From Takakia lepidozioides (Eukaryota; Plantae; Bryophyta), in contig CM060734.1 of NCBI GenBank assembly GCA_030704615.1, forward strand, positions 59,644,001 through 59,708,000: a DNA stretch of 64,000 nucleotides, in the 5' to 3' direction. Shown one piece after another: positions 1 through 63,060 of the stretch (positions are counted from its first letter, which is position 1; each line of letters starts with the position of its first letter). The notes under the pieces are model-generated. The model ran no database searches. It had not been told where the DNA came from and worked only from the letters and a program-made list of their open reading frames with translations. The position numbers and the translations under genes were made by a program.

Positions 1-1502
1 TTGGAACTGGTCTGGGCGCAACTCAGGATGCAAACCATAGCACTGGGCTTCTCCATGCCCATACTTGCCACAATGCCCACACTGCAACTGTGCAGGCTGT
101 GCCAGTGCCAAACCATTTCCTCCCTCTGGGCAATCCTTCTCGACATGGGGTCCTCCACATGTCCAGCACACCACATCCGCCCGTTGTTGGCCAGCAAATG
201 AAGGGAGAAAACCCTGCATCTGAGGTCCTCTCTGCCCTTTCCTGGGCTTCACCCGAGCCCCCTTGTTGTCTTGAGCATGTTGAGGTAGTGGCTGGCTAAG
301 AGCACCACTACCCCGTGGTGCCTCCTTAGCAAATCCCACCATGACCACTCGTTCCTCCACCATGTTGAGCTCTATCTGCTCTGCCAGCAAAAACACATTT
401 GCTAAGGTGGGTTGGGCCGCTTGTAGGAGAGTTGCATCCCGCACCCTTCTCCTCAGCTCCTTGTCCAATATCCCGTACCAGAACTGGACTGCCTGGGCCT
501 CCGTAACCCCTTGGGTTACATCAATCAAGTGCCTCATGCGAGTGAAAGCCTCCCTCAAGCTCTCAGTAGGCTTCCGTTGGAACTCTTGCAAGCTCATCAA
601 TTTCTCTGTCCTCACTGTTTGGTAGTTCCTTCTCAACTCTTTGAAGAACTCCACAACAGGGTTGAAGGCAGGCACCGCCACTGGTGTTGGTGCAGCAGTA
701 GCTTGGGTGGACGTCGTAGTTGTTGTACCACTAGTCTTTACCAAGTCTCAGAGACAAGAACTTGCACTGAAGCGTCGCCAAGAAGAAAGGGCCGAGCAGA
801 TGAAAATGTGAAATTTCTTGGAAGTGTTTTAGCAAGTTGTAAGAATATCTAGTAGATTAATATCAGACTGTTGATGATTAAGAATTCAAATGCTGTTGGT
901 GTGTGATGTATGTTGTCATGTGTTCTTATGTAGCAACCATGTTTACCCAAATTTTGCCAATCACTAACGTGACATTGTGGTCAACTCATTGGCAAACTCA
1001 ACTTTATTATTTTCAGAGTCAGTTCTTATGTGGTGTGGGGAGCCCTACTAGTATTATATCCCTGCACTGCTGCACTTGCAAGAATGGGAATTTTAGTTCT
1101 AGAGCAAACTTGACCGTAGCTGTCCTCTTTCTAGTACATCCTCCACTCCTCGATCTCAACATTGTGCCCCCACCTTAACTCATGGTAATCATCCATGGGC
1201 GGCCCCTCAAGGTGCTGAAACAGCCCCTTCCATGCCATGAAAGACGTAAACAGTTGTGGATTGCGCATTTGCTGCAAGTCACACCAACTATCAAACTCTT
1301 GGATAAAGTCATCCAACTTGATGGTACCCACCACCCCAGAGTATCCTCGTGGCTCCTTGGTGGCTCCATACATCTCTTCCATTGTGTCCCACAACAATGG
1401 CAAGGAAACAACTTGCACCGCCGGTGTGAGTCCTCCTGATTCACAATCCGAATCAGAACCTTCCATAGAAGACACAGAAGGTGAAGGTGGCCTAAACCGC
1501 AC
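1..1502 (-). pseudogene. Retrotransposon Gag (capsid-like region and two zinc knuckles), interrupted by an insertion at about 736-1130
   Basis: ORF 1131-1502 (KLDDFIQEFDSWCD...KGLFQHLEGPPMDDYHE). A manual minus-strand translation of about 1-730 gives PVVEFFKELRRNYQTVRTEKLMSLQEFQRKPTESLREAFTRMRHLI..., then CWTCGGPHVEKDC (about 128-170) and CGHCGKYGHGEAQC (about 38-85, CX2CX4HX4C). Confidence 0.85.
731..1130 (+). other. Captured host-gene fragment inside gag, resembling the N-terminus of the DEAD-box helicase PRP28/DDX23 (RH21)
   Basis: 731-807 translates to LVFTKSQRQELALKRRQEERAEQMK, similar to the PRP28-family segment PVFLTKAQREELALKRRQ as I recall it. Intron-like AT-rich DNA follows. CTAGT occurs at both junctions (731-735 and 1131-1135). 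Confidence 0.55.
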
Positions 1503-1587
1503 ACCTCATCTCGTATACCCGCTAGTATCGCTAGTGCTCGTACCGGCACTTTCCCCAGCAACTAGTGGCACCTCCGTGTTGACAATC

Positions 1588-4159
1588 TGACACTCAACTG
1601 GTCATGAACACGTCCCTAAACCCCTCTCCACAAGGTAACCGGGTAGAGAACCTGATGCGGCTTATGGTTTGGAATACTAGGTTCCTAACATAGCCTGCAC
1701 CTGCACCTGCATCCACCACAGGAACTCCTATGGTTGGCTGGTCATCACCTCCAACCTCACCACAAGAGAAACAAAGATGGTCTGACTGGTCATCAACCCA
1801 GCCTCACCATCGACAGCATGCTCTAGGGTTGGATCGGCGATCAAGCCCGAGTCAACCACCTATAAAATCAAGCGCCACACAAAACTAGCATGGCGCACAA
1901 TCAAGCATGCAGGTATGGAGGGGATCCAAACGCAAGAATGAAAACAACAACTCTCCCACACCAAAAACAACTCCACAGTGTCACTCCTGCAACCCAGCCC
2001 AAATCCGGACTGACTCTCTTGCCTCCACCCACGGAAAGGTCTCGGCCTACACAGAAGGTGGAAAACTACGAGGAATGGAAGCTAAAGCAATGCCTATCCC
2101 CCATCACGCTCTCATCCCAACACCCTTTTTTTTCCCTCTCTTCTCTCACTTGCATGACCATGAGAGCATCCTGTAGACACTCCTCAAACCGCCCTCCACG
2201 AGCTCATGAAACTTGGCCTCCAAGGCCCCATGCAAGCCTCCACAGGGTCCGCCAGTGCCTCCTTATGTCCACCAGCCATTCCTCATAATGGAACCACCAC
2301 AGGAAACCACACCATTCGCTGAAGGTTAAAAAATGGAGCAAATAGAGGTACATATAGGCCCAAACAACATTCTGTCCAAAGGAATTACCTGCAGGCTGGT
2401 CTCCCCCATAGTTAAGAATTGGGCTGAAAACCCGAAAAGATTACCTGCAGGGAGTAATCCCCTTTGTTAAAATGCAACAGGGAGGCAATTCTAACTTTTC
2501 TGCCGGATCAGCTAGCTCAAAACTGTTGTTCTTCAGAGCCCAACCTCCTCATCAAGGTCCCACGAAACGAGTGAATTGTTTTTTTTTTTTGCCACTCTGG
2601 CTGTTCGCGACCTTCCATGGCTGCAACCGCCACGACTCCTCATGGCTCCCCCTAGGCGCTCGTTGGCCACGGGCTGCCCCGTGATACGTACCACGCCCAC
2701 GAGCCTTCACGGCCCGCCATCCCCACGATCTGGTCACCGTGCCAACCCGTTGTGTCCACACCACGACTTCCAACGGTCACGGTCAACGGTCATGGTCAAC
2801 GGTCACGGTCAACAGTCATGACCTGGGCTCGTGGTATCTTGTGATACCGCCCCAACGGACCATCACGACCACTATTCCCTGCGTTCCCTAGAACTCCCAC
2901 GAGTTTTCATCCGTTCCTGGGCGTTCCCACGCCTTCCCGAGCTCTTCCCGAGCTGGGGTTTGCTCTTGCACCTGCTGCCGCTGAGCTATGGCTTATGCGG
3001 AGCCATCAGCCCCGTCGCCCTGCCCTCCTGAGCTCTCACGGCCCACTAGAAGCGCCCCCAACTCAACAGACAAGCTATATGCTGCCCAACAAACTCTATT
3101 TCTTCATGAAGCTCACAAAAACGAATTTGAAAATACACACATTCACAAACTTGGTGCACATGCACTTCTCATGCATATCCCCTGGCTCTAGGACGCCTTG
3201 CTACTGCCCTTCCAGCCCCGCTCTTGCCACTCCAAGAGCCCTCGCCGTGCTAGAGTTTCAGATTGAAACTTCCAACTCAAACACATGCTTCACAAATGCA
3301 CTAATTTGCATACAAGAGGGACCAGCCCCCTCTCTTCACTCATACCTCTTCATGAGCTTGAAGCTGAATCTCCCAACGGGCTGCGATGCATCCCCTCGCA
3401 GCTCCACCATTCGGCTGCTCCTCATCTACCCGCAACAACTAGTTTCGGGTAGAAATACCTGGAGCTGATCATATCATCTCCAACCTGCAACACGCTAGCT
3501 TCCCATGCGCAACCCACATTCCTGCAGCTCCTTAACTCGGCCTGCAGCTGAAGAAGACGACCACCAGTTCGCCCACTTGTGACCAGCATCTCCCTCGCTT
3601 CACACTAGAAGCCCAAACTTGGTTGTCATAGCGTTGAGCTATGCAACGCCGCTCTTCAACATAGGCTACCCGCCTCTCTATCCATTGCAAACGTGCAACA
3701 TGTTCGCCTTTGCACTCTATCCACTTTGGATAGGCTCATACACGGATCCCTGCACTCTAGGCTGAACCGCTTCTCATGAAAACACAAGTGTTACAAAACA
3801 ACTCGAACCTGGCACTCACAGACTCAAGCTCATCTTTCTCGAGTGATAAGGAAAGAGAATGATACAAGCACACAAACTCTCTCAAACTCACACACTTGCA
3901 CATGAAAACATCACTCATATTAAGTCGAGCCAAGTGCACCCCATGCCATGGGGAATCCACACTATAGCGCCATAGCTAGATGCGGTGAGGCTCAACTCGA
4001 GAAAGATGAGCCCACCGCGATCTGCCGTGAAGATAACAATGCCAAGTGCCAAAACATATATTAGCCCCTGGATTGACACTCGGGTCAATCCCAAATGTCA
4101 ATATATAAAAGCTAGCTATTTCCTAGCTAACTTCACACTAGTGGTAAAATAACTTGACA
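1588..4159 (-). repeat. Long terminal repeat (about 2.6 kb) of Gypsy copy 1
   Basis: TG start at 4159 (-). The inner boundary is near 1577-1588, from comparison with ...GAATGACA at 57534 in copy 2. Homologous blocks are shared with 47023-47687 and 55476-57534. Confidence 0.75.
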
Positions 4160-25542: not shown

Positions 25543-26754
25543 TTTCCTGGCGCAATTATCCTTCCCTGGCACAGATTCCCCGAGCCTAACATCAGGACTA
25601 AGCATATCTAAAGCTCTCCTGCATTTGCACACACGTTTTTCTCCAGTCGTTAGTCAATGGATATTGTTCGAAAGACTTGCACGTAGATTTGTCGAGGCGA
25701 GGTCGAGGCCTTTCGTGTAGTTATATCCTTCAATCGGCTTGTTCAACCTGAAATCACCTTATTTGGACCAAGCATTACCTCTAGAGAGGCTCCGAGTCAC
25801 ATCGGTCCCAACATCAGTCTTCATTGTGAATTTTTCCAAGTGCATCATGAATGGAAGTCTATCTCGACGTAGAATCTCAGCTGAATCAACAATCTTGGAT
25901 CTATTTTGCATCGATAGTATATATTCAAGCTGTGCACTGTCACATACATGACTACATCGGCGTTGAGGTTTAGCCCCTAGATCTGTCAAACAAAAAAACT
26001 ACTTTACATGTTTCATCGGTTGGTACATATATTCAACAAGACAACATATATTCAACAGGACCGTTCACAAAGTCTCAAGAGCTAGTAACACGCTCATGTT
26101 GTACATATATTCAACAAGAAGGAAAGAGGCAGGACCGTTCATGTGCAAAAGTCTCAAGAGCTAGTAACACGCTCATGGTATGAATCTACTTACTTCTTAA
26201 TCACTGAAAGTGAATCTTTAATTTTTTGTAGGCTGCAATCGGCGACCAGAGCTTCATTGTAGCAGATCCTTCAGGGCTGCTACTGCTGCGTGCCCCTAGG
26301 CGCTCATGCAATATAATGCTGCATGCTGCACTGATCGGCTGTGAGTCATCGACTAAAACACATTCTGCACACTCGTTCCCTCAAAAATGAAGACGATACT
26401 GATTTTGTGTGTGAGATCTGAGTGAGAGGACGTGATCCTGACAAATCTGCACATCATTCTGGCCAAATCTGTGAAGACTGCACGGAGCGAGAGAGACGGG
26501 ACGAGGAGGGCGGCGCTCATGATTCCAAGAACGACACGTCGACGATATGCAATCACATTTGGGCGCCCGGACGGGCTACATGAATGAAGATCAAACTAAT
26601 GAAGAACAGAGTTCATCCGTCAAGGAGTGACGTTGGAGGAATGCTAAGGCTGGAGGAAACGACGATGCGAAGCAGTTATTCATTCATCCGGGGCCGTTTG
26701 CTGTCTCGCACATGAAGAGTTAGGGTTTAGCGGTAGGGAGTGTGTGCTGCTTCG

Positions 26755-30042: not shown

Positions 30043-31353
30043 GGGCTCTAATTGTGGCTGTGTGCAGGCGGTGAGGAGGTTCTAAGGGAATGTACACCTG
30101 AGACAAAGTTGTTGGAAAATCCAGGGAGTAGATGCATAGGTAGTATCGTCAGATGCATTCTCCCTGAATGCATAGGTAGTATTCTCTGACTCCATTTGGA
30201 TGTGCGAGAGAGGAGAAATCTGCAGTGTTTGAAACTCAGTACCATGCAATACTTTTGAGCTCTACGTTTACCAAACGGAGAAAGAGCAAAGCACTTCAGC
30301 ATCAAGGCAGCACCCCTGCCAGCCTTCAAAGTCATTTCCCTGCTTAATTGGCTTAGTTGCAGGAGGATTTTAGAAGGGTTGGATCAGGCAAGCAGAACAG
30401 AGTTGTCAGTCTGGTGCTAAGAGCCCTTGAAGAGTATTACACGAACAGGACTAAGGTCAACCTAGTGGTCGGAGCATTGTGGCCGATTTAGGTGGTCCTG
30501 GGTTCTGTGCAGGTCAGCTTCCTTTGGACATGTTCTGTTGTTCTTTTGACAGCTTGCCTGCCTTTGGCTGTTGGAAGGTTGGGAAGGAAGCCCCTATTTG
30601 GTTGGTCTTGTCTTAACCACAGTTTAACTGGAAAGTTCATGTTGTTGTGTGGTAGTGGATCCAGTGTTAGTATGTGTTTTTTCTCATCAGTGTCTTTAGA
30701 GTGTCGCGTGCTGATTAGGCTGCTTCATTGCTCCGTGTGTTTGCTGTTTTTGCTGTCCAGTGTGGCTCGTGGCTTGGTTTGATGAGACGCTTGATTCAGC
30801 TTTACGTGTATGTGTTACCATGATTAATCATAGGTAGATCTCCAAGTTATGCAGACAATCAACTAGTATGCATGCAAAAGTGCTGGACCAGGGAGGAACC
30901 TGGCATTTCTATAATTCCCGCCATGAATTGCAAAACGATACATGAAATCTATTGAACTGCTGACAAATAGTGTGTGCAAGCCCATTGACCGTCATAGCAA
31001 TTATTCCCTATGAGATCTTTTCAAAGATGGAAAAGTGATACTAAGGCATTCAGGGATAGCTCGGAAGTCCCTTCTCTCCATCTGATGATAAGTGCAGACA
31101 CCTGATCAATTGCCTTTGGGATGGATTTTGCTTATCTGTGCTACTGAAGCCCAGAGTGCTGTTGGGCTGTCCGGAACTGATGACCATTGTAGCAAAGGGA
31201 GGAACACAAACTGCAGCGAGTGTGGGGGTCAGGTGGGTGTGCCAAATTCCAGTGAATTGGTGATTCAATAGCAAGTTTCATAGTTGGAGAGCAAACAGTT
31301 GGGAAGCTCTCACAGGAATCTTCCAAATAAATCTCGTGTAGGGAATTCAATCT

Positions 31354-34130: not shown

Positions 34131-34359
34131 TGAGTGAAACAACTGATGCTAATCTTTCTTTGATCTCTCTTTATCCAGATGCCCACCACGTGGTTAAGGC
34201 CTCGAAGGATTCTGAATGTCTGGTTATGGTACAAAGTTGTGGGTAGTATACACCCCTCAGGCACACATGCTCTTGAAAGTTGCATCAACAAATCACAGGA
34301 TTGGCAGAACATGGCCAGTTCTACTGCATATCACATTTCCCTTAACATCAATGTGTCTA

Positions 34360-39187: not shown

Positions 39188-42100
39188 CTAGAGCTCCCCA
39201 ACTGTGCTTCTTTGCACAGCGTCATCAACTGGTGAGTTACCCAGTTTGCCCCTGAATTTCTTCCATATGGCGCTGATACCACCAAGGACACCACTTCGCA
39301 ACTTGTAACCTTTTCGGAGACCACCACCAACAACCTTTAAATCTTCATTTTGCTGAACAGGAATCCCAGAGCCATTATATGAAACATCTTCCAGAGTACC
39401 ACCAACAATCTGTGATACTGCTTCAGGAACACTCCTGAAGGTCCTGGCTTGCAAGTCACTCTTTGAATCCAACGCTCGAGCACTACTACGGATCCTGAAG
39501 GCTCGCATATTCTCACACTTCGAAGGTCCTGCCTCCTGATTGGCAATGCCGCCGATCTGAGCTTGTAGATCACTACTATTCGAATCTCCTTCTGGAGAGA
39601 TTTTGAACTTGTCTTCCACAACAACTTCAGCATTGATTTTTATGTAGCTTTCTGATGGAGGCGCTTCTTCAACAATTCCAGAGGAGTCTTCTGCCAAGGT
39701 TTTCTCAAACAAGCTGTCAGACTTCTCACTTATCTTCCGTGGTGAATTACTTGCTAATGCATTGTAGGCAACGGGATTTGGTTCCCCTGGACATCCAACT
39801 GCATGGTGGAGGTGCATCTCTTCAGCAACTGATTGTCTGCCCATTGACTCAAGGGGAGGAATATCATCTGAAATTCTGATAGCCCAGGCCGTGGCAGGTT
39901 TGGCCTCAGGAAGAGCTTCACCCAAAATCCTCAAAGGTAACAGGCGATCACTTAAGTATAGCAGAGGATGACCAGCGGGCGCCCTTTCGACCCTCACAAG
40001 ATCCGACATGGTCTCCACCATTTTCCCAAGGCTTGCAAACCCTGCCGCTTTGTGGTCCAAGACATACTGAAATCGACTTAAGAACTTTGGTTTCAACAGT
40101 CCTAGATGGTAACCATCCTTACAATCGGGGCAAGCTGTTAGCTCGATGTATAACAGCAGTCTGCAGTCTAACATCAATTTCCCCGCAAATGCGTTGGCCG
40201 ACAGCGGATTGTCTCTACAGTTCAAGAGAGGAGGAGACTCTCGTCTTTCTTCCCCGGCTATGTAGATTACGTGCCTCCGCTGGGAGACTTTTAACAGCAG
40301 CACAATTTCGGAGAAGTGGTGGATGAGGTCAGGGAGATTGTTCAAGCCAAGGTATTTATGGTCCAGACGAGCACCACATGCCCGCTGAAAGTCTTCCGGC
40401 ACAAGTGATATGTCGTACCCATTGGGCACTCTTTCCATGAGATACAGAAGCAACTCCCTGAGCTTGTTCTTCATGTCCAATGGGCTGAATGGGGCCTTCA
40501 AAGGCTCAAACACTTCGACATCTTTGAGACCTCCTTCACATTTTTCTGCGACCCTTTCGTATTCTTGCGTACAGGCTTACTAGACTCTGCACATAGTGCT
40601 GCAGTCTTCGCGCTGATTTCAGGTTTACTCTTGGACTGGCCCCCCACCTGTTTCGTGTGAGAAACTGGCAAGCTTGCTACTATTTTCCTCGCATGGTCAG
40701 CAATCTCAATTGCCTTTAGGTTGCTCTCGCTTGGAGGCCGTAGCAAGCCTTTCCAGGAGCTGGGCTGATGTAATGACAACTGATCTCCTGTGATGGCAAC
40801 TGTAGGTTTCGGAGCAGCCTTCTTCGAATCTTTGTGTGTAGGACCTGTATAGACCAGGCTACAATTTGGATCTGACGGAGCTGAGGACGCAGTGAGGCCT
40901 TCGCCACTGGCCAGGCTACCCCAAAACCACACTCTCGATGCTATACCAAGCAGGGATGGTGGGACGTCCACAGTACCAGGAGGTAGTGCCAGCAGAATAT
41001 TGTAGGTTCTCATTCGCAGCCGATGCAGCGCATTTGCGAAGTCGAGGTCCCCGGATATGAGCAGAAAATATGCCGGAGGAGGGTTATCAAGTGCCCAAAA
41101 TATCATGTCCACCAATATTGTCTTATTGTTTGCCTCCTTCTTTCCTGGGCACCACCCACAGTCCGTATTGTGTAAGGATCCCAAGTGCTGCACATGGACG
41201 TAAGCAATGGTGATTCATAATCATATCAAGTTCCACATGCAACATTGTTCAAGGGCAAGTTATAAGTTGCACCCTATCGCAACATCCTGCCAAGTGAGCC
41301 GCTTGGCGAGGTGGTCATACCTGATGCAAGCTGCTTAGTCCTGTCAGCGAGGCATCAATGTTGCTGGCAATGTATGTAAGAACCCTCGTACATCAAGTGA
41401 CCAGTTGATGTGATTTTAGATTACGACCTTGTTCAATTCAATGTTAGCAGGTCCCACAGCTTGTCAGTTGATCGACTGTTTAATGAGCCCCTCTGGTCCA
41501 TTCGATAAATAGTTGAGTTCTTACCTTGTCTTCCGTTTGAACACATACATGTATGTATGACCCAAATTCTGTCATTCTTTATATTGAACATTCAGCTGAC
41601 TGATCAGCCAAGATCACCCTCGGGAATTTTCCATGATCTAGATGGACTCTGATTGTACAGAACATACCAATTCAAGAATGCGAAGTCTGATCTTGCAGAA
41701 AGACTTGCAGTGCTGACAGCTTCAGGCGACAGTACTAAAAAAACAACATGCAGGACCACGGAAAAGAAAGCCTATTTAGTACTGGGCACCATCTCGATCA
41801 GGTGATCACTTGTGGAATGCCCTGTAATATGGGAGTAGGTGTTATAGAAAACCAGGCAAAACCACATAGGCTCTGTTGGAGGTTTTCTCGAGGTTTTATG
41901 GATCACATCCTCACATGTGAGTAAAGCAGACGTATCAGCTGGTTCCTAAATCTGAACTATCGTGCAAGTGTATCACCTTAAGCTAAGTAAAGGAGACAAC
42001 CGTCATACAATCTACCTGAGCCCACTTAGTTTCTTATTTCCAGAGCGGGAATACGACCTCATGAATCATCGTAAGGATACAAAGTCTGCAGTACGTAGTC

Positions 42101-43469: not shown

Positions 43470-45500
43470 CTGTACAGATGCTGACGATGATGATGCTGAA
43501 GTAAGCTTTTGTATCTGCTTGGATACCACCACCAGGGACCACAGCTTCCACATCACCAGCTTCAAATCCTTTTTCTGCTTGACAAGAATCCCAGAATGTG
43601 AGCCATTGTTGGAATATCAGTTTCCAGAGTACCACCAACAATCTGTGATGCTGCTTCAGGAACACTGCTGGCTTGCAAGTCAGTATTGGAATCCGATGCT
43701 CGAGCACTACCAGGTAACATGCAGGCTGGCACAGTCTGATACTTTGAATCTGCTTCCTGTATATAATGCCACAGATCTGAGCATGCAAATTGCTAAATGG
43801 AATTCCCTTCTGGAGAGATTTTGAAATTGTCCTCCACAACAACTTCAGCATTGATTTTTAAGTAGCTTTCTGATGGTGGCGCTTCTTCAACAGTTTCACA
43901 GTATTCATCTGACTAGGAGTTTTCTGCCAAGGTTTTCCCAAAAAACCATCATGTATTACTTGCTATTGCAATTTGGTTCCCCTGGATGGCGGAGGTGCAC
44001 CTCTTCAGCAACTGATGGTCTGCCTATTGAATCAAGGGGAGGAAGCTGGGAGGAAGACCATCTATAATTCTGGTAGTCCAGGCCGTGGCAGGTTTGGCCT
44101 GAGGAAGAGCTTCACCCAAACTCCTCGAAGGTAACAGCCTGCAGGCGATTACTTCAGTATAGCAGACGATGACCGCCGGGCGCCCTTTCGACCCTCACAA
44201 GATCCGACATGGCCGCCACCATTTTCCCAAGGCTTCCAAACCCTGCCGTTTTGTGACTGGTCAGTCCAAGATATACTGAAATCGACTTGCGAAATTCTTT
44301 TCTTTCAACTGTACTTGATGATCATCGTAACCATCCTTCTAATCGGGGCAAGTTAGCTCAGCAGTCTGCAATCCATCATCAGTTTCCCCGCAAATGCCAG
44401 CTTGACCGACAGCGGATTGTCTCCACACTTCAAGGGAGGAGGAGACCCTCGTCTTTTCTCTCCGGCTGGATAGATCACAGGCCTTGCGCCGGAGGTACTT
44501 CAGCCGATTAACAATTTCGGAGAAAGTGTCTGACGAGGGTCAGGGAGATTGTTGAAGCCAAGGTATGTATGCTTGAGACGAGCACTACATGCCCGCCGAA
44601 AGTCTAGTGATATGTCGTATCCATTGGGCACTCTTTTTTTTATGAGATATAGAAGCAACGCCCTCAGCTTGTCCAGCAAGTCCAATGGGCCGAATGGGGC
44701 CTCCAAAGGCTCAAACACTGCAACATCTTTTGAGACCTCCTTCACGTTCTTCGGCGACCCTTTCGAATTCTTGCGAGGCTTACTAGACTGTGCGGACAGT
44801 GTTGAAAACTTCACGCTGGTTTCAGGTGTACTCTTGGGCTGGGCCCCCAACTGTTCCAACAGATGGGAGTTGATCGCATAGACTGTTTGATGAGCCCACT
44901 TCAGAAATAGTTGAACGTACATTAAATTGAGTTCACATACATGTATAACCCAAAATTCTGACGTTGTAATTGAACATTCAGCTGAGCCAAGATCACCCTC
45001 GAGAATTCTCCATGACCTAACTTAGATAGACTCTGATAGTTACATGTAGACCAATTCGAGAATCATACGCACGTGACGTCACTCTGATCTTGCTGCAGCG
45101 CTGACAGCTTCATGCAGTAATAAGTACAATTGACCACATACGGGACCACGGACAAGAAAACCTGAAGTACTGGGACTCATCAGATTCTTCTCGACCAGGT
45201 GATCAGTGTGGAATGCATTGTGGGTGTTGACTAAGACTGATGATTCCAACGGCCAGCCCAATCGTTCTAGAGTTGTGGACCACACAGCAGGTGTACTTAA
45301 AGCAGGCAAAACCACATACAGAGGCCCCCCTTGGAGGATCACACCCTGATGAGGGAAGCAGACAGTGGAACCAAGTCTCACAATCTCAACTATCACATTC
45401 CTGACTGGAAATAAGAAAAGAAACCAGCGCGAGGTAGATCACTGTATGAGTTATATGACTTAGATTCTCTTACGTGGTAGAGCAGGAATACGAGGTTGAC
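43470..45500 (-). pseudogene. NYN-LOTUS paralog 3 (decayed copy of paralog 2, NYN exons deleted)
   Basis: 43540-44860 aligns by eye to 39330-40650 with many indels. 44870-45500 aligns to the paralog-2 intron at 41460-42060. Confidence 0.85.
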
Positions 45501-49757: not shown

Positions 49758-50350
49758 TCAAGCAGTCCGACCAGTGTCCTGCCGTAGGGCCTTGTGCAGC
49801 TCGTTGAAACTCAGTGTTGGAGCATGGATGAAGACGTCCACTGCGGATATGCAACTCATGCGCTTCAGAAAAATGTAATAAAGGTGTTTGCAGGGGACGT
49901 ATGCTGCATTCTTCGATTCCATAACAAGGAAGTCCTCACAGTTGCAAGCTGGGTACTGTGAAACCGTGATTGTATACACGACACTGCGCGCAGCAGACCC
50001 GGCTGTTGACAACTGAAATATGCGCCCCATCCTGGGGTGAGGAACATCCCTGCAACCTTGCACTATGCAGGGCATTGCAAGAGCGTTGGCCATCCTAGTG
50101 TCGTTCGCCTTTGTTGGTGGCCGTCGTCTTTTCAGTTTCCCCCACCGATGGGTGGGCCAAGCTGCGGGGTCACCCACCGGTATGCGGGGCGAAGAGCTTC
50201 TCGTGGGAGGAGGATGACGACTGGGAATTGGATTTCGTGGAACGTATTTTAGCTTTCAGAGAATCAGGATGGAAGTACACGTTTACCCAAACACGGGAGT
50301 CCATGTTGAAGACGGGACCTCTCGGTACGCTCCGCAGCGAAGTCCTGCAG
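49758..50350 (-). CDS. SWIM zinc-finger protein, 3' exon(s); the gene probably starts further upstream (up to about 52885) via short exons
   Basis: YTITVSQYPACNCEDF...YVPCKHLYYIF is a CxC-x(n)-CxH SWIM motif. An AG acceptor lies near 50345 and a frameshift near 50175. Confidence 0.7.
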
Positions 50351-50944
50351 TGAGAAGAGTGTGTCCTACCTAATAACACAAATGATTTTCTGGAGGATTC
50401 CGCATCCAACAGGATGGGTGATCGGTGCACGTAAAGATGAAGGTATGTAACGTACGTTACAAAAACGGACGACAACAGCAAGTTCACATCGGATATTTGG
50501 TGCCTGAATTGTAATGTACAACCACTTGGGCTACAATAAATCAGGCCTTCCCATGAATTTCGGCACCGAAATCTGGATGAACATCTCTGTCATGTAACAA
50601 CTTTGGAAGCCAGGGGATGAATTCCGGCGACAGAAATAGTAATTTGTTCACCTCATGAAACTAACCAAGCATCCAACGGATGGATTTCGGTGCCGAAATT
50701 CGGATGAACATCTTCTTCATCAAATTGTTTCTGCACATGAGGGTTGAATTTGGATGCCAAAATACGGATGAATGTGTTCCTATCCATTCTGCCGATTCAG
50801 GATTACTGTCATTCGGATGTCAGCACCGATATCCGGACACGTGGTGAATCACGACTGTATTTCGGCCCCGAAATTCATTTTCATCTCCTTTTCCGACCCT
50901 AATTCTGCTGCCCTGCGGATGGATTTCAGTGCCAAATTCATCTG

Positions 50945-50977
<33 letters not shown>

Positions 50978-51034
50978 CTTTGCGACAGATAACTTCGGCG
51001 CCGAATCTCATCCAAGTACTCCCTTCTAATTTTC

Positions 51035-51590
51035 CTTTTTCTTCGCGAGCAATGAATTTCGGCGCCGAAATTCATCCGAAGTCCTCCCGAATTATTTTTT
51101 TTCTTTGCGAGCAATGAATTTCGGCGCCGACATTCATCCGAAGTCCTCCCGAAAAAAAAAATTTCTTCGCGAGCAATGAATTTTGGCGCCGAAATTCATC
51201 CGAAGTCATCCCGAAAAAAAAAAAATTTCTTCGCGAGCAATGAATTTCGGCGCCGAAATTCATCCGAAGTCCTCCCGAATTTTTTTTTTCTTCGGGAGCA
51301 ATGAATTCGCGCCGAATTCATCCGAAGTCCTCCGATTTTTTTTTTCTTCGGGGCAATGAATTTCGCGCCGAAATTCATCCGAAGTCCTCCCGATTTTTTT
51401 TTTTTTCTTCTTTCGGCGCCGAGTCCTTTTCTTTGAATTTCGGCGCCGAAATTCATCCGAAGTCCTCCCGAAATTTTTTTTTTTCTTCGCGAGCAATGAA
51501 TTTCGGCGCCGAAATTCATCCGAAGTCCTCCTGAAATTTATTTTTTTCTTTGCGAGCAATGAATTTTGGCGCCGAAATTCAACCGACTCC
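51035..51590. repeat. Tandem array of about 62-bp units (about 9 copies), each containing the 24-bp palindrome ATGAATTTCGGCGCCGAAATTCAT
   Basis: The unit is TTCTTCGCGAGCAATGAATTTCGGCGCCGAAATTCATCCGAAGTCCTCCCGAA(A/T)n. A separate 74-bp tandem duplication lies at about 51677-51850. Confidence 0.92.
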
Positions 51591-53127
51591 ATCCCTCCAA
51601 ATTCTTTTCAGGGAGCGCCGGATTTCGCGCCGAATTCATCCATGCCCTCCCTCCAATTTTATTTTTCTTGAAATGGATGATTTCGGCGCCGAAATTCATC
51701 CTTACTGTCCGCAATGAGTAACTCTAATATTACATTTTCTATGCGACGGATGAATTTTGGCGCCGAAATTCGTCCTTACTGTCCGCAATGAGTAACTCTA
51801 ATATTACATTTTCTATGCGACGGATGAATTTTGGCGCCGAAATTCGTCCAAACCCGACACTTACTATTTGCTTCTAGATGATATAATTTTCGGTAAATCG
51901 TTGGAAATACCCCGTTCCGACGAAGATAACAGGAATATTCTGCATTTAATGGAGAAATCGGCATATTGAACCCCTTCTATCAAAATTAATTGCATTTTAG
52001 CCGTTTTTTTCCTTTGAAACCGACAGTATCCATTAAGTGGTCTTTTTCGCACGGGACGTTGCCGCACATAAAGTATAATTTCGGCGCCAAAATTATAGTT
52101 AAATGTCCAAAAATGGCAAGTCCAACAGGCATGGACAGCATCCGTCAGGGGCAATGATGGCGGCAAAGCATAGCATGGTGCCGATTTAGTCTTCGCTCTG
52201 GATGAATTTCGGCGCCGAAATATGGATGATTTCACCTCGTCTACGCGCGGACGGAGATATTCGTAATGAATTTCGGCGCCGAAATATGGATGAAATGTGC
52301 CCAAGTGCAGCCGTTTCCACTGTCCCAGAATTAATTCCGGCTCCGATATCCCACTGACAGGTTTGCTCATGACGAATGAGGACTTGGGAAGCGATGAATT
52401 GCGGCGCCGAAATTTGTAAGTTTGTGTACGAAAGCACTTGAATATGATGAATTTTGGCGCCGAAATTCATCCGTCCGTTGATGAAACGTACCGACCTGAC
52501 TGTTGAATGTCATAGGCAGGGGATTTTCATGGCGGTTGGGTTTCATGATGTGCAGATATTTCATTCGATGTCAGCTGCTCCGGGAACAGCATCCGGTGAA
52601 CGGAAGGTATTTCGGTGCCGCAATTCGGATAAACCATCTTGTACTGGTGGCTGGAACTGGGCACGCGTCGTGTTCCAGTCGACTTCATCCGTGCGAACGT
52701 GTCAGGGGTCACAATCTCTTCATCACTCATACGGCAGAAAGTGGTGGACGGTGGCAACGCTTCGGGAGACGTGACTGCTTACACATCTGCTCGTGCATAG
52801 TGGTTGCATGTTCCACCGCTTCGCTCTCTCGCTCCTTGCCCTTCTGCAGTGACATTCTCCTGCGTTTCCTCTCCTTATGCGGCATAGTGGTAGCATAGAG
52901 TTTGTGGAAGGTCAGGCAACTCCGGCAAAGAGAAGGAGGACGCGGGATTTTGGGAAGCCGCCGACGACACGACTTAAGCTCCGTCTCATGCATGAAATGC
53001 TCCGGAGACTCGGATCGCCCACCAGTGAGAGATTCGTGCTTTGCGGATATGAAGCACTCCATACGCAATATTCCTTTTACACCTTTTTTTTTGCGTGCAG
53101 TGTCTCATGTTTTCCTGTTTGTTTGAC

Positions 53128-54782: not shown

Positions 54783-57560
54783 CAAAGTCTCATTTGGATC
54801 CTTTTGTTGTACAGTTCTGAAACACTTAATGAAAATATTGACGATTTGAAAAATCATTGTGTTCAGACTGCTTGTCCGATTCCCTACATTTCTTCCGCCA
54901 ACCAAAATGTATAATAAAAGCAGAAGAGACGCAAACTTCAGTGAAGAACCCTACAAGTAATTTATGCACACCATCGAGCCGAGAACTTGAAGCCATGAAA
55001 ACCCTGCCGTTTCTAACATTCCTATTGGGAAATTTGGCGCCGAAATAGCCCAATGTGCGCCTTCGTTATATGGGCCTCAAAAATTCCGCGGATGAATTAC
55101 TGTACCAAAATATCGCGATGGAAGCCTTCAGCACAAGGCACTTCAGCACATTCCACTTGGGTATTTCGGCGCCCAAATAGCCCGTTCTGCGCCATTAAAT
55201 ACCGCACTATATCACATTTTAAGAGGTAATTTCGGTGCCGAAATACCCCGGTGGATGTCTTCAAAACACCATTTTAGCACACTGCTCTTGGGAATAACGG
55301 CGCCGAAATACCTCATTCCGCATCCTGGACCAGGAGAAACAGACCCTATTACCGAGGTAAGAGGACATAACACCGTCAATAAAGGCAGGAAAATTCCAAT
55401 TCCGCGGATGTCCGCTCATGAGCTCATAGGCTCATGGGCTCATGGGCTCATGCGCTCATGAAATAGTAAACCTCCAAGAGCAGGGCTGGAACAGGAGCTA
55501 AGAGGTGCGGCAAGGCCATGGAATGTGCACCTAGGGTTTCAGAGCTTGGAAGAAAAGCTCTGGCACCACAAGAGGAGTGTCTTGTGGCTGGAAATGTAAG
55601 CCTTAGGGTTTCAGGAGCTTGGCAAGGGCTGTGGAGTGCTTAGTCTTGTCTTAGAGAGCATCAAGGAGCTAAGGAGCCAAGATAGGGGGCTGATACCTCT
55701 TGTGTGAAGAGGTTGCATGTGTGGAGCATGTATTCAGCTCATTGAAGCTTCCATCTTCAAGCTTGGAGGGCAAGCAAGGAAGAAGGAAGGGCTGACTTCC
55801 CTTATGTGAGAGCAATGCATGTGTGGAGCATGCTTTCAGCCTGTTGAAGGCTTGTACTTTCAGGTTTGGGAGTGCAAGAAAGGAAGGAAGGGGCTGGTTT
55901 CCTGTAGGGCATGTATGGATCATGCTTCCAGCCCGCTGAAGCGTGTATTTTCAGGTTGGTGGGTGCAAGAAAAAAAGCAAAGGGGCTGATCCTCTGGTGG
56001 TGAGAGTGGGGCATGTGTGGAGCATGCCTTCAGTCCATTAGGCTTTTGTTTTCAAGCTTTAGAGAACTAGAAGAGAAGGTAAGGGGCTGATCTGCTCTTA
56101 TGTGACAGTCCGACACTTGTAGAGCATGTTCTGAGTTGGGGTTTCAACCTCAAGCCTAGATAGAGCATGGCTCTTGAAGTGGCAGGTGTAGGGGGCTGGA
56201 ATAGGCTCTAAGACAGATGTTATGGCCAAGGGAAACGCTTGAATGAGTGCTCACAAGGGCTGGAAACCAACAAGGCTTGGTTTGTTTGCCATTGAGTTTA
56301 GTGGCGTGTTTGGGGAGTCTAAGTGAGAAAGAACGACTTGGTTTGTGGCAACCATCTTCCTCATGGCTTAGGGCTACTATTATTAGTGTTTGGGAGCCGA
56401 AAGAGCAAGAATACCTTGCTGATTTCTTCACAGCCGCCATAGCTCGGTGCAAAGAAGCCTAGAGTCCAAGAGACACAAACCCTAGCTTGGCGTGGCTAAA
56501 CCCCTTGGAGAAATGGCTAAACTGTCATGAGTGGCATGTGGGGCTGTGACCCCTGTGACCTGTGTAGGGCTGTGACAGGCTGTGCCATGTGGCCTGTGGG
56601 GCTGTGATGGGCTGTGACAGGCTGTGCCCTGTGGCATGTGAGGGGCTGTGAGGGGCTGTGGCCTTTGGGGCTGTGACCCTGTGACCTTTATAAGGCTGTG
56701 ACAGACTGTGACCTGTGGCCGTGGGGGCTGTGACATGTGGCCTTTGGGGCCTACACCTATACCTGCATCCACCGCAAGCACTCCTATGGTTGGCTGGTCA
56801 TCACCTCCAACCTCACCACAGGAGAAACAATGATGGTCTGGCTGGTCATCACCCCAGCCTCACCATCGACAGCATGCTCTAGGACTGGCCGGTGATCAAA
56901 TCCGGACCAATCACCTATAAAAACAAGCGCCCACACAAAACTAGCATGGCGCACAGTCAAGCATGCAGGTATGGAGGGGATCCAAACACAAGAAATCAGA
57001 ACGACAACTCCCTCACACCAAAAACAACTCCACGGTGTTGCTCTCGTAAGGACATCCCAGCCCAAACCCGGACTGACTCTTGCCGCCACCTACGGAAAGG
57101 TCTTGGCCTAATGAGAGGGTGGAAACTACGAGGAAGAGAAGCTAAAGCAATGCCTAACCCCAGCATGCCCTCATCCCAACACTCTTCCTTTCCTCTCTTC
57201 CCTCACTTGCATGACCATGGGAATATCATGAAGATACTCCTCAAACCGCCCTTCACGAGCTTCAAAATTCGGCCTTCAAGACCACATGCCAATCCTTAGG
57301 CAGTCCACCAGTGCCTCCACGAGTCAGCACAGGCCGTCCACAGGTCAACACGGGCTACCACAGACCAGCACAGGCCCACACAGCTCACTGCTCACAGCCG
57401 TCACAGCCCCACACATGCCACAGCCTGTCACAGCCCTACACAGGTCACAGGGAACCATAAGCCGCAACAGGTTCTCTACCCAGTTACCTTGTGGAGAGGG
57501 GGTTAGGGACATGTTCATGACCAGTTGAATGACAGTTTGTCAACACTGAGGTGCCACTAG

Positions 57561-58208
57561 TTGCTGGGGACAGTGCCGGTTCGAGCACTAGCGAGGCTGG
57601 CAGCTACAATCTGTGAGAGTGGGGAGGTTACTTCATCTTCTGCGGAGATAGTGGGAGGTGTAGTGCCGGAGGGATCCTCGGATTTGAGGGTCAAGACTGC
57701 CACGGCGGCGCCATGGCAAGCTGCAGCTGCCAGATTGATGGAGCTTCCAGCTAGGCCAGCCATTGAGCGCACCATGGTGACACCTGGAGTTGTCATGTTA
57801 GACAACCAGGATGACATTTTTTGTTTGAGTGGACCGGCAGGCAAGAGGTACCGGCCACTGCGGGTCTTGTTGGACTCAAAAGCTCAGCCATTGATGTTGG
57901 GCAGAGCTGCTATTGCAGGCTTGGGCCTCACGGAGGCGGATATGGAGCCTTGTCCTTTCCAGATACAAACGCCTCTGGGAGGATCGGAGCAGACTCGGGG
58001 CTTGACACGGCGTGAGTTGGCAATCAGACTACGGCCGGATCACCCTACAGATGGCTCAGTGATGTGAGTCAAGGCCATTGTGACAGACGCGGTCTCGTAC
58101 GATGTCTTGGTTGGTGGGGCAATGTTGTACCCCATGGGCTTCACCCTGGATTTTTGGGAGGAGTCAGCTTCCTATAGGCCTGGATGGTAGTCAGGGGAGG
58201 GCCGGTGT
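57561..58208 (+). pseudogene. Retrotransposon aspartic protease
   Basis: RVLLDSKAQPLMLG (a D-S-G-type active site with G replaced by K), followed by SYDVLVGG. Stops occur at about 58065 and 58188. Confidence 0.8.
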
Positions 58209-58579
58209 GTGCAGCTCATTGTGACGTTTATAGGAGGAGTTGTGGTTGCCCAGCGGGGCAAGATGCCGACACTAGCAGCATTTACAGCTGCAGTGACTTG
58301 GCCTGGAGAGTTGCTTGAGGGAAACGCTCATTCAGAGGATGACATACCTCCAGGAGAACAGGTTGACATGTATGTTATGGCGGAGTTGCCTGCCATGGTT
58401 GCTCAGACTCCATTGTGGGGCACGAGCAAGGATTTGCAGCGGGTTGCTGATCGACGGGTGCAACAAGCCTGGGTGGAGGCTTTTGTACCATCAAGAGAGG
58501 AGGAGAGTGCGGGGATTGCACCAGGACCACCTCAGTTGTCTCAATTGGACACCACACCTATTGTGTGGCAATATCCGGA

Positions 58580-59520
58580 TGAAGGCATTTGTCTTCTGGA
58601 CTTGTTTGGCGGGATCAGCACCAGATTGGCTACTGTGTTACAGGCAGGTGTACGAGTTCGGCGTTACCTGTATGTAGAGAGGGATGAGACTGCACGACGC
58701 ATTTCACTTCGCCATGTTGCTCAGTTGGTGCAGCGGTACCATAAGTTGTTGCCGGTGGCTGCAGTTCGTGGATATCAGCAGGCCTTGCCAGCAGACATTT
58801 CGTTGCTGGGGGCGCAGGATTTGGAGCGGGTTGGCTCTATTGATCTGGTAGTAGCAGGTTGGCCCTGCCAAGGACATTCATCAGCCGGGCATGGCAATGG
58901 ATTGCGAGACTCGAGGTCGGGTCTGTTTTGGGAGTTGGTGCGGGTTTTGCGCCACTTGCAGCTTCATCAAGCTGTATCTCCAGCATACATCTTGGAGAAT
59001 GTGCCACTGATGGGCGATTCTCGGGCCAGGATGATGGCCAGTGTGCATCAAGTCCGGTCGTGGCTTGGGTCAGCAGTGTTGTTAGATGCAGCTACAGTGG
59101 GGTCACGGGCTCATCGTCCACGGCTATGGTGGGCTAACTTGATGCCACCCGCACTGCTGAAGCGTGCATTTGATGGAGTGCAGCGGCCAGCACATCTCAC
59201 AGTGGATAGCATTCAGGACACAGGGAGGCAATCTCAGGTGTGAGACACGATGACCATTCGCCTTTGGCAGTGGTCAACAAGGTGGGTCAACCACGAGCAG
59301 CATTACCTACACTGTTCAGCTTCCCAGGATCGCATGTTTTCCGGGATTGTGGACCTGGCCGCCTGTGGGATGCTCAGTTGCAGCAGTTAGTGGAGCCTAA
59401 TGCTGACGAGCGTGAATGGGCAATGGATTTTTCCACTGGGACCACGGCGGTGCCTTCTCTTTCTGAGGCATCACGTCGTCAGGTGTTGGGGCAAGCAATG
59501 GATCTAAATTGCTGGACCTT
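58580..59520 (+). pseudogene. DNMT3-like C5 cytosine DNA methyltransferase domain embedded in pol
   Basis: Motif I LDLFGGIST, II YVERD, IV VAGWPCQG (catalytic PC, about 58860), VI ILENV (about 58995), VIII AHRPRLWWANL, IX ADERE.AM.F..GTT and X RRQVLGQAM are present in canonical I-X order. There is a frameshift at about 59240. Confidence 0.93.
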
Positions 59521-59993
59521 ATCAGCTTGGCTATGGCTGAGCAACGAAGAGTGCGGAGTGCACTTCCCTTAACGGTCTCTCTGCCTACCGAGACGGTACA
59601 GGCAGTGAGTGGGGGCAAGCCGGTAAGGACCACAGGGTGTAGTCATCCATGGCACACGTGGGAGGTGCTCGAGGTTCAGAGGGAGTTGGCAGCCAAGGCG
59701 GCTGTGATGGATGAGGTTGGGGATTCTTCTCGGGTTGAGGAGGTCCTCAAGGATGAGATGATGGGGCAGGATGAGGCCTTATCATTGACTGAGCAGGCAG
59801 GGAGTAGTGCTCAAGAGGTTGCGGCATAGCAACCACGGGACGCGTCCTCTACCGCTCAGTCTGCTGGACTTAAGGTTGCAGTTACGAAGGGAAATTGGGA
59901 GCCTGACATTGGACCTATTGTCACTAGAGGAGAGAGACGACGTATACGGCGGTTCCTGAGGCTTACAGGAATTGCTTTGCCTCTTGTACTACG

Positions 59994-61726
59994 GTGGAGG
60001 AGCATGAGAGATATGTTCAGGTTGTGCATCGACCGGGTTTGGTCAATAGGGATGCAAATGGATTGAGTCGCAATCCATGCACGAGCCAGCAAGATGACAC
60101 TGGAGCTCGGTGGCATGGTGAGACGGACGAGGAGATGGTGTCGGGATGGCATGCATCTGCCTTTTTGTGTATCTTGGCATCGGGAGGTCAGGTTGGACCT
60201 ACAACAGGGATGACTATAGACGAAGTGTCTGAGGACCTTGAGGCTAGTGATGAGTCAGGTGGTGCCAGAGATATACATGAGGATTCGGTTGTGTTGGACT
60301 ACCTCCGCACTGGAGACACGGCAGCTAGTGTGACTGCCAAGGAGAGGGATCGGATCCTACAACGAGCCAAGAGGTTCAAGTGGGAGGGGATACACCTGCT
60401 TCGAGTGTGGGAGGATGGTTGGGTGAGGATCGTGCCTCACCCAACACAGCGTGCACGGTTAGTGTGGCATGCCCATGAGGAGTTGGGGCATTTTGGAGTG
60501 CGACGCACTCATAGTTTACTGCAGGGGCAGTATTGGTGGCGTGGTATGCATACAGAGGTGCAACAGTTCGTGGCTAGGTGCATGGTGTGTGACAGGGTGC
60601 GTGCTTCATTCAACGCCCCTACACCACAGTTGCATCCTTTACCAATCATGGGATTGGGCTACAGGTGGAGTCTTGACTTCGCAGGATCGTTGTCACTGAC
60701 TATGCGCCACCACAGATATGTGTTGGTGATGGTGGAGCACTTCTCCAAGTGGATTGAGTTGGTTCTATTGCCTAACAAGGCTAGTGAGGGGGCTGCGTAT
60801 GCATTCTTGGATCGTGTGCTTAGCCGATTTGGTGCTCCAGCTGAGGTACTCATGGACCAAGGGAGAGAGTTCTTGGGGAGTTTCAGGCTTTGTGTGATAA
60901 AGCCTTGATAGACCACCGCACCACTTCTCGGGATCATCCTGAGGCCGATGGCTTGGTAGAGAGAGTTGTTCAGACGGTGAAGAGGGGTTTGCGCAAGTAT
61001 GGCTTGCAGAAGGGACACCTAGGATATTGGGATCTTCAGGTTCCTTGGTTAGCCATGGGCTACAGGTTCAGCAAACAAGCATCACTTGCAATTGCCTCCT
61101 TCTCACCATATTTCCTTCTCTTTGGCCGAGAGCCGGATTTGCCTGCAGCCATTCATAGGGACACTGCTCAAGTCCTTAACCTTGACAATCCGGACGTGTG
61201 GGTACGTGCATGTGATCAGCGTGCAGAGTTGTTCAAGAAAGTCATGCTCATGGCTTTTGAGAACCTTGTCATTGCACAGCACCGTGATACGTTGAGGTAT
61301 GCCACTATACGTGGTGGAGGATATCGTCCTAGGGTTCGGAGGTTTAGCCCTGGTAGCTATGTTTATTTGCAACAGACTGCTCCTACGACTCTGGATGTTA
61401 CTGCAGGGCGTGTTATTCTAAGGGTTCGAGAGGTGTTGCCCTCAGGGGTCCTGATCTTGGAGGGTCGGGATGGCATGACTTGGAAGGACCATGTGCGTAA
61501 TTGTGCGCCATGTCATCTTCCCAATGTCGATGGCAGAGTTGACCCAAACTTGGCAGTGGTACCTGCAGGTTTGAGGTGCATGCTCTGTGGGTCTGCCAAA
61601 GGGGCAGCCACCATGCTGGTGTGTGATCGATGCTCAAGGGGTTGGCATATGGGATGCTTGACACCACCTCTTGAGAAGGTTCCTAACGGAGATTGGTTGT
61701 GTCCACACTGCTTGGGATGGTGGTAG
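59994..61726 (+). pseudogene. RNase H C-terminus, Gypsy integrase (H2C2 and DDE core) and C-terminal PHD finger
   Basis: VVHRPGLVNRDANGLSR; HEELGHFG...YWWRGM...CMVCDR; WSLDFAG; LMDQGREF; DGLVERVVQTVKR; and CMLC...LVCDRCSRGWHMGCLTPPLEKVPNGDWLCPHC (C4HC3, 61577-61711). There is a frameshift at about 60885. Confidence 0.92.
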
Positions 61727-62894
61727 TGGACATGACTGGAGGCAGCTAACAAGACATGGGAGGCCAAGCTCAAGTTCATAGGTTGCAAGACGGCGACTAA
61801 CGATGGGGCAACTCTTGCACCCGGCCTCTTGATCTATCGAGTTTGAGTGTAGTAGGGATAGTGGTGGAGGACTTAGTGAGGCTATGGTCACTATCACATC
61901 TTGTGGTTACCTGGACTTAGAGGGACCTAAGCACCAGCTAGGGGGGCGATTGTGTGGACTAGTGACTGCCATAGTGGGCAGCATAGTGGCAGCCTAGTGA
62001 CTTACTAGTTGTAGCCTAGTGGTTGGACTAGTGACTGTACTAGTGGTGGACTAGTGATATACTAGTGTGTGGCGTGCACATGTGTTGTGTGGTTTTGGAC
62101 AGCGATGTAGTTGTGTAGCGATATGTATGTGCACGACAAACCAAAGGGATGAAAAGAGTGAAACAGAAGAGAGAACGAACAGGCCTCCATTGGAAAAAGG
62201 GGATCATCAAGGGTAAAAGACAACAAAGGGAAAGAGGGTTCTTCGAATGGAGTAGGTAGAACGTGAGCACAAACGGCATGAGCACAAACCCACGGTCATG
62301 GGGGTTTTATGTTTTTTTAGACGTGGTCATAGGAGTTATATCTTTTCAAAAGAGAATAAAATCCGAAAACCCTAATGCGAAATAGGCACCCATAATGTAT
62401 ATCTACAAGCTCAGGTTCCACATATCTACAGCTTTGGTATGCTACAAGCAAACAACGGGTTTCGTTAACGAAATAAATCAAGGTAGCAGGTTTCGCCAGC
62501 GAAATAATGGGTTTTGCTTGTGAAATAGTGGGTTTCGCCTCTGCGTAGGTCATTATCCTATGGTTTCGTGGGCAAAACAAAATGTATTGTGTTTGATTTT
62601 GCATATAAAAGACGACGTGAGATTGTTTTATTTCGCTAATGAATTAGGGTGATAGGGTGACTAACCCATCTTCGTGTGGCTTTGCGCTCACGTGAGCACA
62701 AATTTCACATTTTAGTTTCGCAATCATGTGGATGTCTGGCCCACCTGAAGAAGTTTGTGCTTGCATAGGGCACAATTTGTTGTCTGATGCATGAATTTCC
62801 ATTGCAGCTATACATGCCCACAATTTGCCAGCAGAACAAAAAAAGTAGGAGGTTTGTGTAAGGATGTGGTAGGGAAAGAAGAAACTCAGAAGGA

Positions 62895-63060
62895 GTTTGT
62901 TGGAAAAATCCCTAAGCGAGATGTGATCTCTTGGAATGCCATGAATGCAGGATTAGCTTGGCACGGGCAAAGTGAAGAGGCTTTTCGTTACTTCCGAAGT
63001 ATGCAACAAGAACCCAAAAGGTCACCTTCATGAGCATCCTCAATGCATGTGCCAGTCCCG
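62895..63060 (+). pseudogene. Isolated PPR motif fragment
   Basis: KIPKRDVISWNAMNAGLAWHGQSEEAFRYFRSMQQE..VTFMSILNACAS. Confidence 0.75.

Follow-up and report, generated by a model that had tools for sequence, protein, structure and literature searches.

Structure of the element in the window

The window is a stretch of 64,000 nucleotides from the Takakia lepidozioides assembly GCA_030704615.1 (contig CM060734.1, positions 59,644,001 to 59,708,000). Near its right end it contains a dead, rearranged copy from an abundant family of Gypsy-type retrotransposons, the family being of the KnitGypsy-Dnmt3 kind known from Klebsormidium nitens. This copy combines a DNMT3-like cytosine DNA methyltransferase (DNMT) domain with an integrase (INT) that ends in a PHD finger. 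Judged from the reading frames, the DNMT of the window's subclade is the last part of the gag-protease frame and lies outside pol, a conserved and likely leaky stop codon separating it from the reverse transcriptase (RT). The following parts were recognized (PR, protease; RH, RNase H).

57453..57594, + strand: remnant of the 5' leader, with gag deleted behind it; 93% identity over 142 nt to window positions 1669-1528, just upstream of gag in a second copy
57594..58187, + strand: gag-protease spacer and aspartic protease; active-site region 57867-57887, one in-frame stop inside (58065) and one after (58188)
58572..59518, + strand: DNMT3-like C5 cytosine methyltransferase domain (PF00145); motifs I-X in canonical order, frame change near 59240
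59827..59835, + strand: conserved in-frame TAG followed by CAA CCA, a predicted leaky stop between gag-PR-DNMT and RT-RH-INT-PHD
59836..60038, + strand: pre-RT linker, about nine RT codons (59988-60015) and the end of RNase H, the remaining RT/RNase H being deleted
60456..61333, + strand: Gypsy integrase (PF17921, PF00665); HHCC zinc finger 60474-60596, D-D-E near 60669, 60849 and 60950, frame change near 60874
61577..61711, + strand: C4HC3 PHD finger at the integrase C-terminus (PF00628); stop at 61724-61726
61938..61949, + strand: polypurine tract, with sequence and placement as in the related loci L013 and L028
61950..62138, + strand: single terminal "B" repeat with CACGACA as its last bases, which closes the element on the right; B-A-B in relatives, and at 62138 contigs show loose ends, with depth dropping beyond

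Gag, nearly all of RT and RNase H have been lost from this copy. The gag break lies at about 57594, the opening codons of the frame starting at 57561 are leader sequence, and further frame changes occur near 59518 and 59959. The RT remnant that the initial annotation had placed after the DNMT is real but comprises only the nine or so codons listed above; no Pfam match to RT or RNase H is left in the window copy, and the conserved stop lies in between. Contigs from sequencing runs continue into RT sequence at the break points 59982, 59989 and 60016. On the right, the element extends past 61726, where it had been taken to end, to 62138, through the polypurine tract and the terminal repeat. Downstream of the PHD stop and ahead of the polypurine tract, a non-coding motif of about 40 bases (61790-61835) has been preserved in diverged families (L013, L028).

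That the carrier is a Gypsy element was confirmed by the Pfam matches to Integrase_H2C2 and rve in 59928-60905 (E 1e-15 and 7e-10), and the PR-RT-RH-INT order of Gypsy elements is complete in relatives such as L013, L028 and L035. The protease gave no Pfam match in the window; Asp_protease_2 was found in the related protein P0213, and tblastn with the Marchantia protein P0003 gave a 56% match over residues 547-1098, in the gag-protease spacer and protease stretch.

The DNMT domain

A Pfam match to DNA_methylase (PF00145) was obtained in 58191-59240 with an E value of 8e-13. The methyltransferase motifs, for which we assume the usual numbering, start at 58599 (I), 58671 (II), 58857 (IV, GWPCQ), 58992 (VI, LENV), 59109 (VIII), 59393 (IX) and 59486 (X), and they run in canonical order and without intron from 58599 to 59503 across one frame change. 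A profile of eight relative sequences compared with the PDB ranked DNMT3A/B/C at the top (4e-19), ahead of DRM-type entries (1e-9 to 2e-7) and also of HhaI/HaeIII. For the stop-free DNMT of the relative L001, a structure was predicted with high confidence (pLDDT 95.5); its best Foldseek match was DNMT3A (6f57, E 2e-20, TM-score 0.75), and all 30 rows shown were DNMT3. Profile ranking and predicted fold thus identify the domain as DNMT3-like, an assignment by ranking, host DNMT3 sequences being absent from the tree described below. The intronless, non-permuted DNMT3-like domain proposed in the initial annotation is borne out.

Between families the domain is under purifying selection: dN/dS (ratio of nonsynonymous to synonymous substitution rates) was 0.10 in group 2 of the related loci, 0.17 between L001 and group 1, and 0.10 between the window and group 1, this last value coming from the 10 of 20 pairs that were unsaturated; saturated pairs do not enter the between-family means. 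Even decayed copies mostly retain the catalytic Cys, the Glu of motif VI and the motif that binds S-adenosylmethionine (SAM). Motif IV reads W-E-C-Q instead of P-C-Q, with the catalytic Cys kept, in loci L039-L080 and in many chlorophyte-type proteins.

A conserved stop codon between DNMT and RT

In the window, TAG CAA CCA at 59827-59835 is in frame with the pre-RT linker. The two groups of loci nearer to the window comprise L001-L038, of which 30 cover this junction and eight end too early. All 30 have a stop at the homologous place, TAG in 23 and TAA in seven, followed by CAR-YY, and elsewhere in the same stretches CAR-YY follows only one other of the 709 stop triplets. The linker sequences flanking the stop have diverged among loci with TAG-CAR-YY retained, and in L035 a single TAG lies inside a 7.25-kb frame. 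Across four sequencing runs no other letter was seen at 59827-59829, with 30 positions varying in the 191-bp stretch; the first base after the stop is among these 30, in one contig of run X7 and as a trace in run X1. The named liverwort proteins P0002, P0003 and P0005 end about 80 amino acids past the DNMT, and it is from protein ends that the stop context of the named Marchantia, Calypogeia, Sphagnum and algal proteins was deduced.

Because the stop separates DNMT from RT, the DNMT was assigned to the Gag product and not to pol, to which the initial annotation had attributed it. A DNMT inside the Pol polyprotein open reading frame (ORF) was not encountered in the window's subclade; it was encountered in single-frame relatives (P0397, group 3). 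The CAR YYA context is the readthrough signal of tobacco mosaic virus (TMV) type, which allows 6-10% readthrough in stable Arabidopsis lines (PMC2754532), and the UAG before RT is likely a leaky readthrough stop. Common to both systems would be the stop context and a readthrough that sets the ratio of two products (PMC2754532); in contrast to TMV, the stop here divides a retrotransposon's DNMT from its RT, and the sixth base deviates in most loci.

The second frame could also be reached by splicing or re-initiation, the DNMT still being made with Gag. In Ogre elements a stop between protease and RT is spliced out, and an ATG lies two codons past the stop in group 1 loci. However, this ATG is missing in the window, L001 and L034-L036, and TAG-CAR-YY has been kept across otherwise diverged linkers, which argues against both routes; we regard them as quite unlikely.

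Relatives and their distribution

The search with the DNMT frame returned 27 longer proteins, 15 of them from Marchantia polymorpha, one from Calypogeia fissa, one from Sphagnum fallax and ten without species name. With the integrase-PHD frame 190 proteins were found, and the names among the 120 listed were Marchantia, Haematococcus, Pleodorina, Tetrabaena and Klebsormidium. When the clusters of 30 proteins were looked up, Coleochaete scutata, Closterium and K. nitens GAQ93235.1 joined the list. The Marchantia, Calypogeia and Sphagnum proteins confirm that the family occurs in land plants. On this sequence evidence it is far older and wider than a capture in the K. nitens lineage, being present in liverworts, a moss, charophytes and chlorophytes. 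No fern, lycophyte, hornwort or seed-plant name appeared among the relatives found, most matches carrying no species name; a first metagenome scan with P0010 gave no match, nor did viral contigs. One RT-RH-INT-PHD protein, P0163 (cluster of P0033), bears the database label uncultured Synechococcales cyanobacterium, likely a binning error.

Relatives show two layouts, one with DNMT before RT and one reading RT-RH-DNMT-INT-PHD, the latter found in full in 35 among 146 proteins and in 32 among 150 of a second set; all named proteins with this second layout are from chlorophytes. In a FastTree phylogeny of 170 DNMT domains, all 50 rows with DNMT before RT formed one clade (support 98), with the 120 others outside. 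This clade includes the window, the liverworts, Closterium and K. nitens GAQ93235.1, and the nearest named DNMTs to that of the window are from Calypogeia and Marchantia (17-row clade, support 100). The tree was built with no outgroup or bootstrap, partial domains and rows of undefined layout being left out, and gives the direction of the DNMT move no root. A quick integrase tree showed the same split with weaker support.

The Coleochaete scutata protein is 69% identical in its integrase-PHD part and close to the window in the integrase tree. This would suit a window of algal origin, from a streptophyte or a contaminating alga, in which case the copy would not be a land-plant example. The nearest DNMT names argue otherwise, as do the pentatricopeptide repeat (PPR) genes of the window, one with E, E+ and DYW domains and two others reduced to remnants. 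Such PPR genes mark land plants with organelle RNA editing, although some charophytes have a few. The neighbouring genes thus favour an embryophyte, as the initial annotation had argued, and an algal source is very unlikely; the land-plant claim for the family rests on the named genomes regardless.

When contigs of run X1 were placed on a 6-kb stretch, 68,947 aligned, at identities from below 90% to above 99%. Their cover over the DNMT was about that over the integrase and fell steeply beyond about 62130. The spread of these contigs indicates many diverged copies carrying the DNMT; depth is to be taken here as a sign of such copies and not as a copy number, and run X1 may be the source sample. 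A one-off retrocopy of a host DNMT3, captured by a single element, is scarcely credible, since the domain occupies the same position in dozens of loci and in several named species, the DNMT profile matches 435 clusters (50% identity) at E <= 1e-30, and the DNMT part is as densely covered by contigs as the integrase part. The domain is a trait of the family, as had been supposed.

Comparison with described elements

The kind of element is already known, and the DNMT in the gag frame, the conserved stop and the wide spread are what is added here. Like the present family, KnitGypsy-Dnmt3 is a Gypsy element with a DIRS-like repeat layout, and its DNMT3-like domain is intronless, non-permuted and under purifying selection (PMC5890265). 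From its PR-DNMT layout we infer that GAQ93235.1, which groups with the window DNMT at 32% identity, is a copy of it. With this grouping, and with split repeats in relatives as reported for KnitGypsy-Dnmt3, the separation from algal elements drawn in the initial annotation was abandoned. As published, KnitGypsy-Dnmt3 has its DNMT in the Pol ORF and acquired it in the K. nitens lineage (PMC5890265), whereas here the DNMT ends the gag-protease frame. The term "PHD" is absent from the main text and the searched supplements of that paper, and its Fig. 4c may draw one.

EpiLTRs of Cymbomonas and Euglena (bioRxiv 10.64898/2026.05.21.726589) are also long terminal repeat (LTR) elements with a cytosine methyltransferase and a chromatin reader; they differ by a DNMT4-sister enzyme, an adenine methyltransferase and a chromodomain, and the preprint sets them apart from "streptophytes (Gypsy-DNMT3)". 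Gypsy-7a_cRei of Chlamydomonas (PMC9940879) shares a Gypsy polyprotein with a PHD finger, for which an insertion bias was proposed; compared by its description only, it has no DNMT among the listed domains and has two LTRs. Later papers speak of "streptophytes", land plants not being named in the passages concerned (PMC12344493; bioRxiv 2026.05.21.726589). No description of land-plant or chlorophyte members, of their PHD or of the stop was found in the literature searched, which did not extend to Repbase, Fig. 4c, the 2018 main supplement or the preprint supplements; passages of PMC6317226, PMC6453930, PMC5784723, PMC2836005, PMC8557442 and PMC3350952 describe no such element, PHD or stop. PHD fingers in Selgy/Phygy or Selaginella elements were not borne out, "PHD" being absent from PMC6317226 and PMC3350952.

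Element ends

The complete arrangement, A1, ORFs, polypurine tract, B1, A2 and B2, was found in L013, L028, L040, L044, L050 and L059. The ends are TG...CA, and B1 joins A2 across two spare bases. Target duplications of 4 bp match in nine of the 11 loci having both ends (mismatches in L040 and L050), and two of these nine share an insertion site; repeat ends and duplications were read by eye. No TGG-type tRNA primer site was seen after A1 in any locus printed, the left end consisting of A only. The window copy keeps the polypurine tract and one B; no start of an A repeat was located in the window, and the loose ends of run contigs at 62138 resemble the start of a second A (agreement 0.46). An origin of single-B elements from integrated one-repeat circles was considered and is weakened by L059 (B-A-B) and L074 (single B), which occupy the same insertion site and point to later recombination or assembly collapse.

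Split direct repeats of the form A1...B1-A2-B2, with no tRNA primer site, are characteristic of Ngaro/PAT-type DIRS elements. In contrast to these, the family has a DDE integrase, TG...CA ends and 4-bp duplications, and not a tyrosine recombinase. It differs as well from canonical two-LTR Gypsy elements (identical LTRs with a tRNA primer site), from chromoviruses (chromodomain after the integrase) and from the DIRS/Ngaro type in the strict sense (tyrosine recombinase, no target duplication). DIRS-like repeats with Gypsy domains have been described in the K. nitens element (PMC5890265), a likeness judged from a figure legend.

The PHD finger

PF00628 was matched in 60845-61723 (E 5e-11), and no chromo match was obtained after the integrase at E 0.1; the reading of a C4HC3 PHD finger in the place of a chromodomain therefore stands. 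The finger is present in 118 of the 120 integrase relatives listed (the best 120 of 190) and, on these sequences, is a clade-wide feature. C4HC3 fits in 115 of 119 proteins, and at least 113 of these 115 fingers have no Trp two residues before the His, which by the cage rule corresponds to a missing aromatic-cage Trp. The structures in the PDB nearest to the PHD profile are CHD4, KDM5B, PHF12, KDM5A, ATXR5 and PHF21A, most of which presumably read unmethylated H3K4. The ADD domain of animal DNMT3 reads this same mark. An acidic residue ahead of the first Cys, which we assume some H3K4me0 readers use, is missing from land-plant-type fingers. In sequence the PHD is most like readers of unmethylated H3K4, and such binding is predicted.

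A model for methylation in the particle

We favour, with moderate confidence, a model in which Gag-protease-DNMT is made from the first frame and RT-RNase H-integrase-PHD by UAG readthrough, the DNMT being packed at Gag dose and likely methylating the cDNA before integration. Gag-protease-DNMT would be the main product, and readthrough, by analogy with TMV in roughly a tenth of translation rounds, would yield RT and integrase-PHD. The protease would free the DNMT, many molecules of which would then be present in each particle to methylate the cDNA, and the new copy would arrive marked like host repeat DNA. The PHD could bind H3 tails with unmethylated K4 and steer insertion away from active H3K4me3 promoters. 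The internal B-A junction would template both ends, which the integrase would then process. Writer and reader lie on opposite sides of the stop and would therefore be made in different amounts.

Several observations weigh against this model. The full CAR-YYA is found in only four of the 30 loci, 24 carrying CAA-CCC, most of them from one close group, and the independent families with the stop context number about four besides that of the window. A stimulatory RNA structure was not found downstream of the stop (z -0.06). The loci of group 3 (L039-L080) have no shared stop, and P0397, P0400, P0386, P0041 and the Closterium protein P0254 run from DNMT into RT in one frame. The DNMT may be dispensable in some lineages, because none is seen in the protein in five cases that fall on the chlorophyte side of the integrase tree (P0069, P0082, P0092, P0095 and P0111); the L loci were collected by a DNMT pattern, and the share of family members without DNMT is not readable from them. 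Within groups of decayed copies, dN/dS of the DNMT was 0.56 and 0.29, similar to RT and integrase. Finally, the DNMT of the K. nitens element gave no methylation in yeast, a test called inconclusive by its authors as human DNMT3B also failed (PMC5890265). In favour of the model, the DNMT3 domains of the dinoflagellate SymbioDIRS do methylate CG in yeast (PMC5890265).

The negative yeast result for the K. nitens domain (PMC5890265), together with the PC or EC of motif IV in different lineages, would also be expected if the domain had been kept for a role other than DNA methylation, such as binding and shielding the cDNA ends or the B-A junction, or RNA methylation. We give this little credence: the conserved features named above (catalytic Cys, motif VI Glu, SAM-binding motif) are mostly intact even in decayed copies, and the predicted fold matches DNMT3A across the whole domain.

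The enzyme might also act mainly on nuclear chromatin, at the insertion site or on older copies, damping the family or altering host methylation, and not on the cDNA in the particle. Synthesis at the level of Gag would give far more enzyme than one cDNA of 8-9 kb needs, the DNMT adjoins the integrase-PHD in many relatives, and both self-limiting and insertion-site effects were raised by de Mendoza et al. (PMC5890265). On the other hand, the element DNMT has no targeting domain of its own, and in the window clade the stop and RT-RNase H separate it from the PHD. A mainly nuclear role is unlikely, though it deserves real weight beside methylation of the cDNA in the particle.

More tentatively, and with confidence somewhat short of even, we propose an ancient Gypsy lineage, widespread among green plants, that has split repeats, lacks a tRNA primer, combines DNMT3 with a PHD and methylates its cDNA while this is still in the particle. 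Its DNMT would have moved across a translational switch: chlorophyte-type elements have it behind RNase H, and in the clade that contains the bryophytes it precedes a leaky UAG and would be produced at capsid dose. If so, in land plants where the family is abundant, de novo DNA methylation would have a source that has so far been overlooked. Why retrotransposons carry an enzyme of the silencing class has been open since 2018, the known carriers being hard to work with; the copies in Marchantia polymorpha, annotated only as hypothetical proteins, bring the question into a genetic model, and from the conserved stop a concrete prediction follows, namely that particles contain the DNMT at Gag dose. 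Split-repeat ends alongside a DDE integrase suggest that the cDNA ends are made in an unusual manner. Such elements may distort the numbers of host DNA methyltransferases counted in bryophytes and green algae.

Other features of the window

Two further pieces of the same family were found in the window.

56749..57318, - strand: inverted piece of the 5' leader, 84.5% over 581 nt to window positions 1693-2262, with opposite-strand joints
1..2262, - strand: second, interrupted copy with leader and gag, zinc-knuckle-like motifs, 71% and 55% to the gag of P0003; runs off the window

The second copy gave a weak Retrotrans_gag match (E 0.0017). Short tandem units in opposite orientations (56521-56750 and 57359-57455) flank the inverted leader piece and may mark a rearrangement.

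The frameshifted PPR gene, of PLS type with E, E+ and DYW domains, lies at 31342-34137 (+), and the further PPR remnants near 12400-13150 (-) and 62790-63050 (+). Frames 9966-10562 (-) and 4604-5155 (+) had no Pfam match; judged by eye only, we take the first to recall a Crypton/ZMYM-like N-terminal region and the second a pogo-type transposase tail. Frame 49758-50255 (-) shows a CxC...CxH motif and no Pfam match at E 0.01; the motif presumably recalls the SWIM zinc finger of Mutator-like elements. At 23991-25653, 39188-41214 and 44500-45021 (-) lie tandem paralogues that carry NYN and OST-HTH/LOTUS domains, and a search with the 462-amino-acid NYN/OST-HTH frame gave no relatives of near length. 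An array of units of about 63 bp, which are formed around a palindromic GGCGCC core and occur in both orientations, extends over 50549-52626 and 55016-55315.

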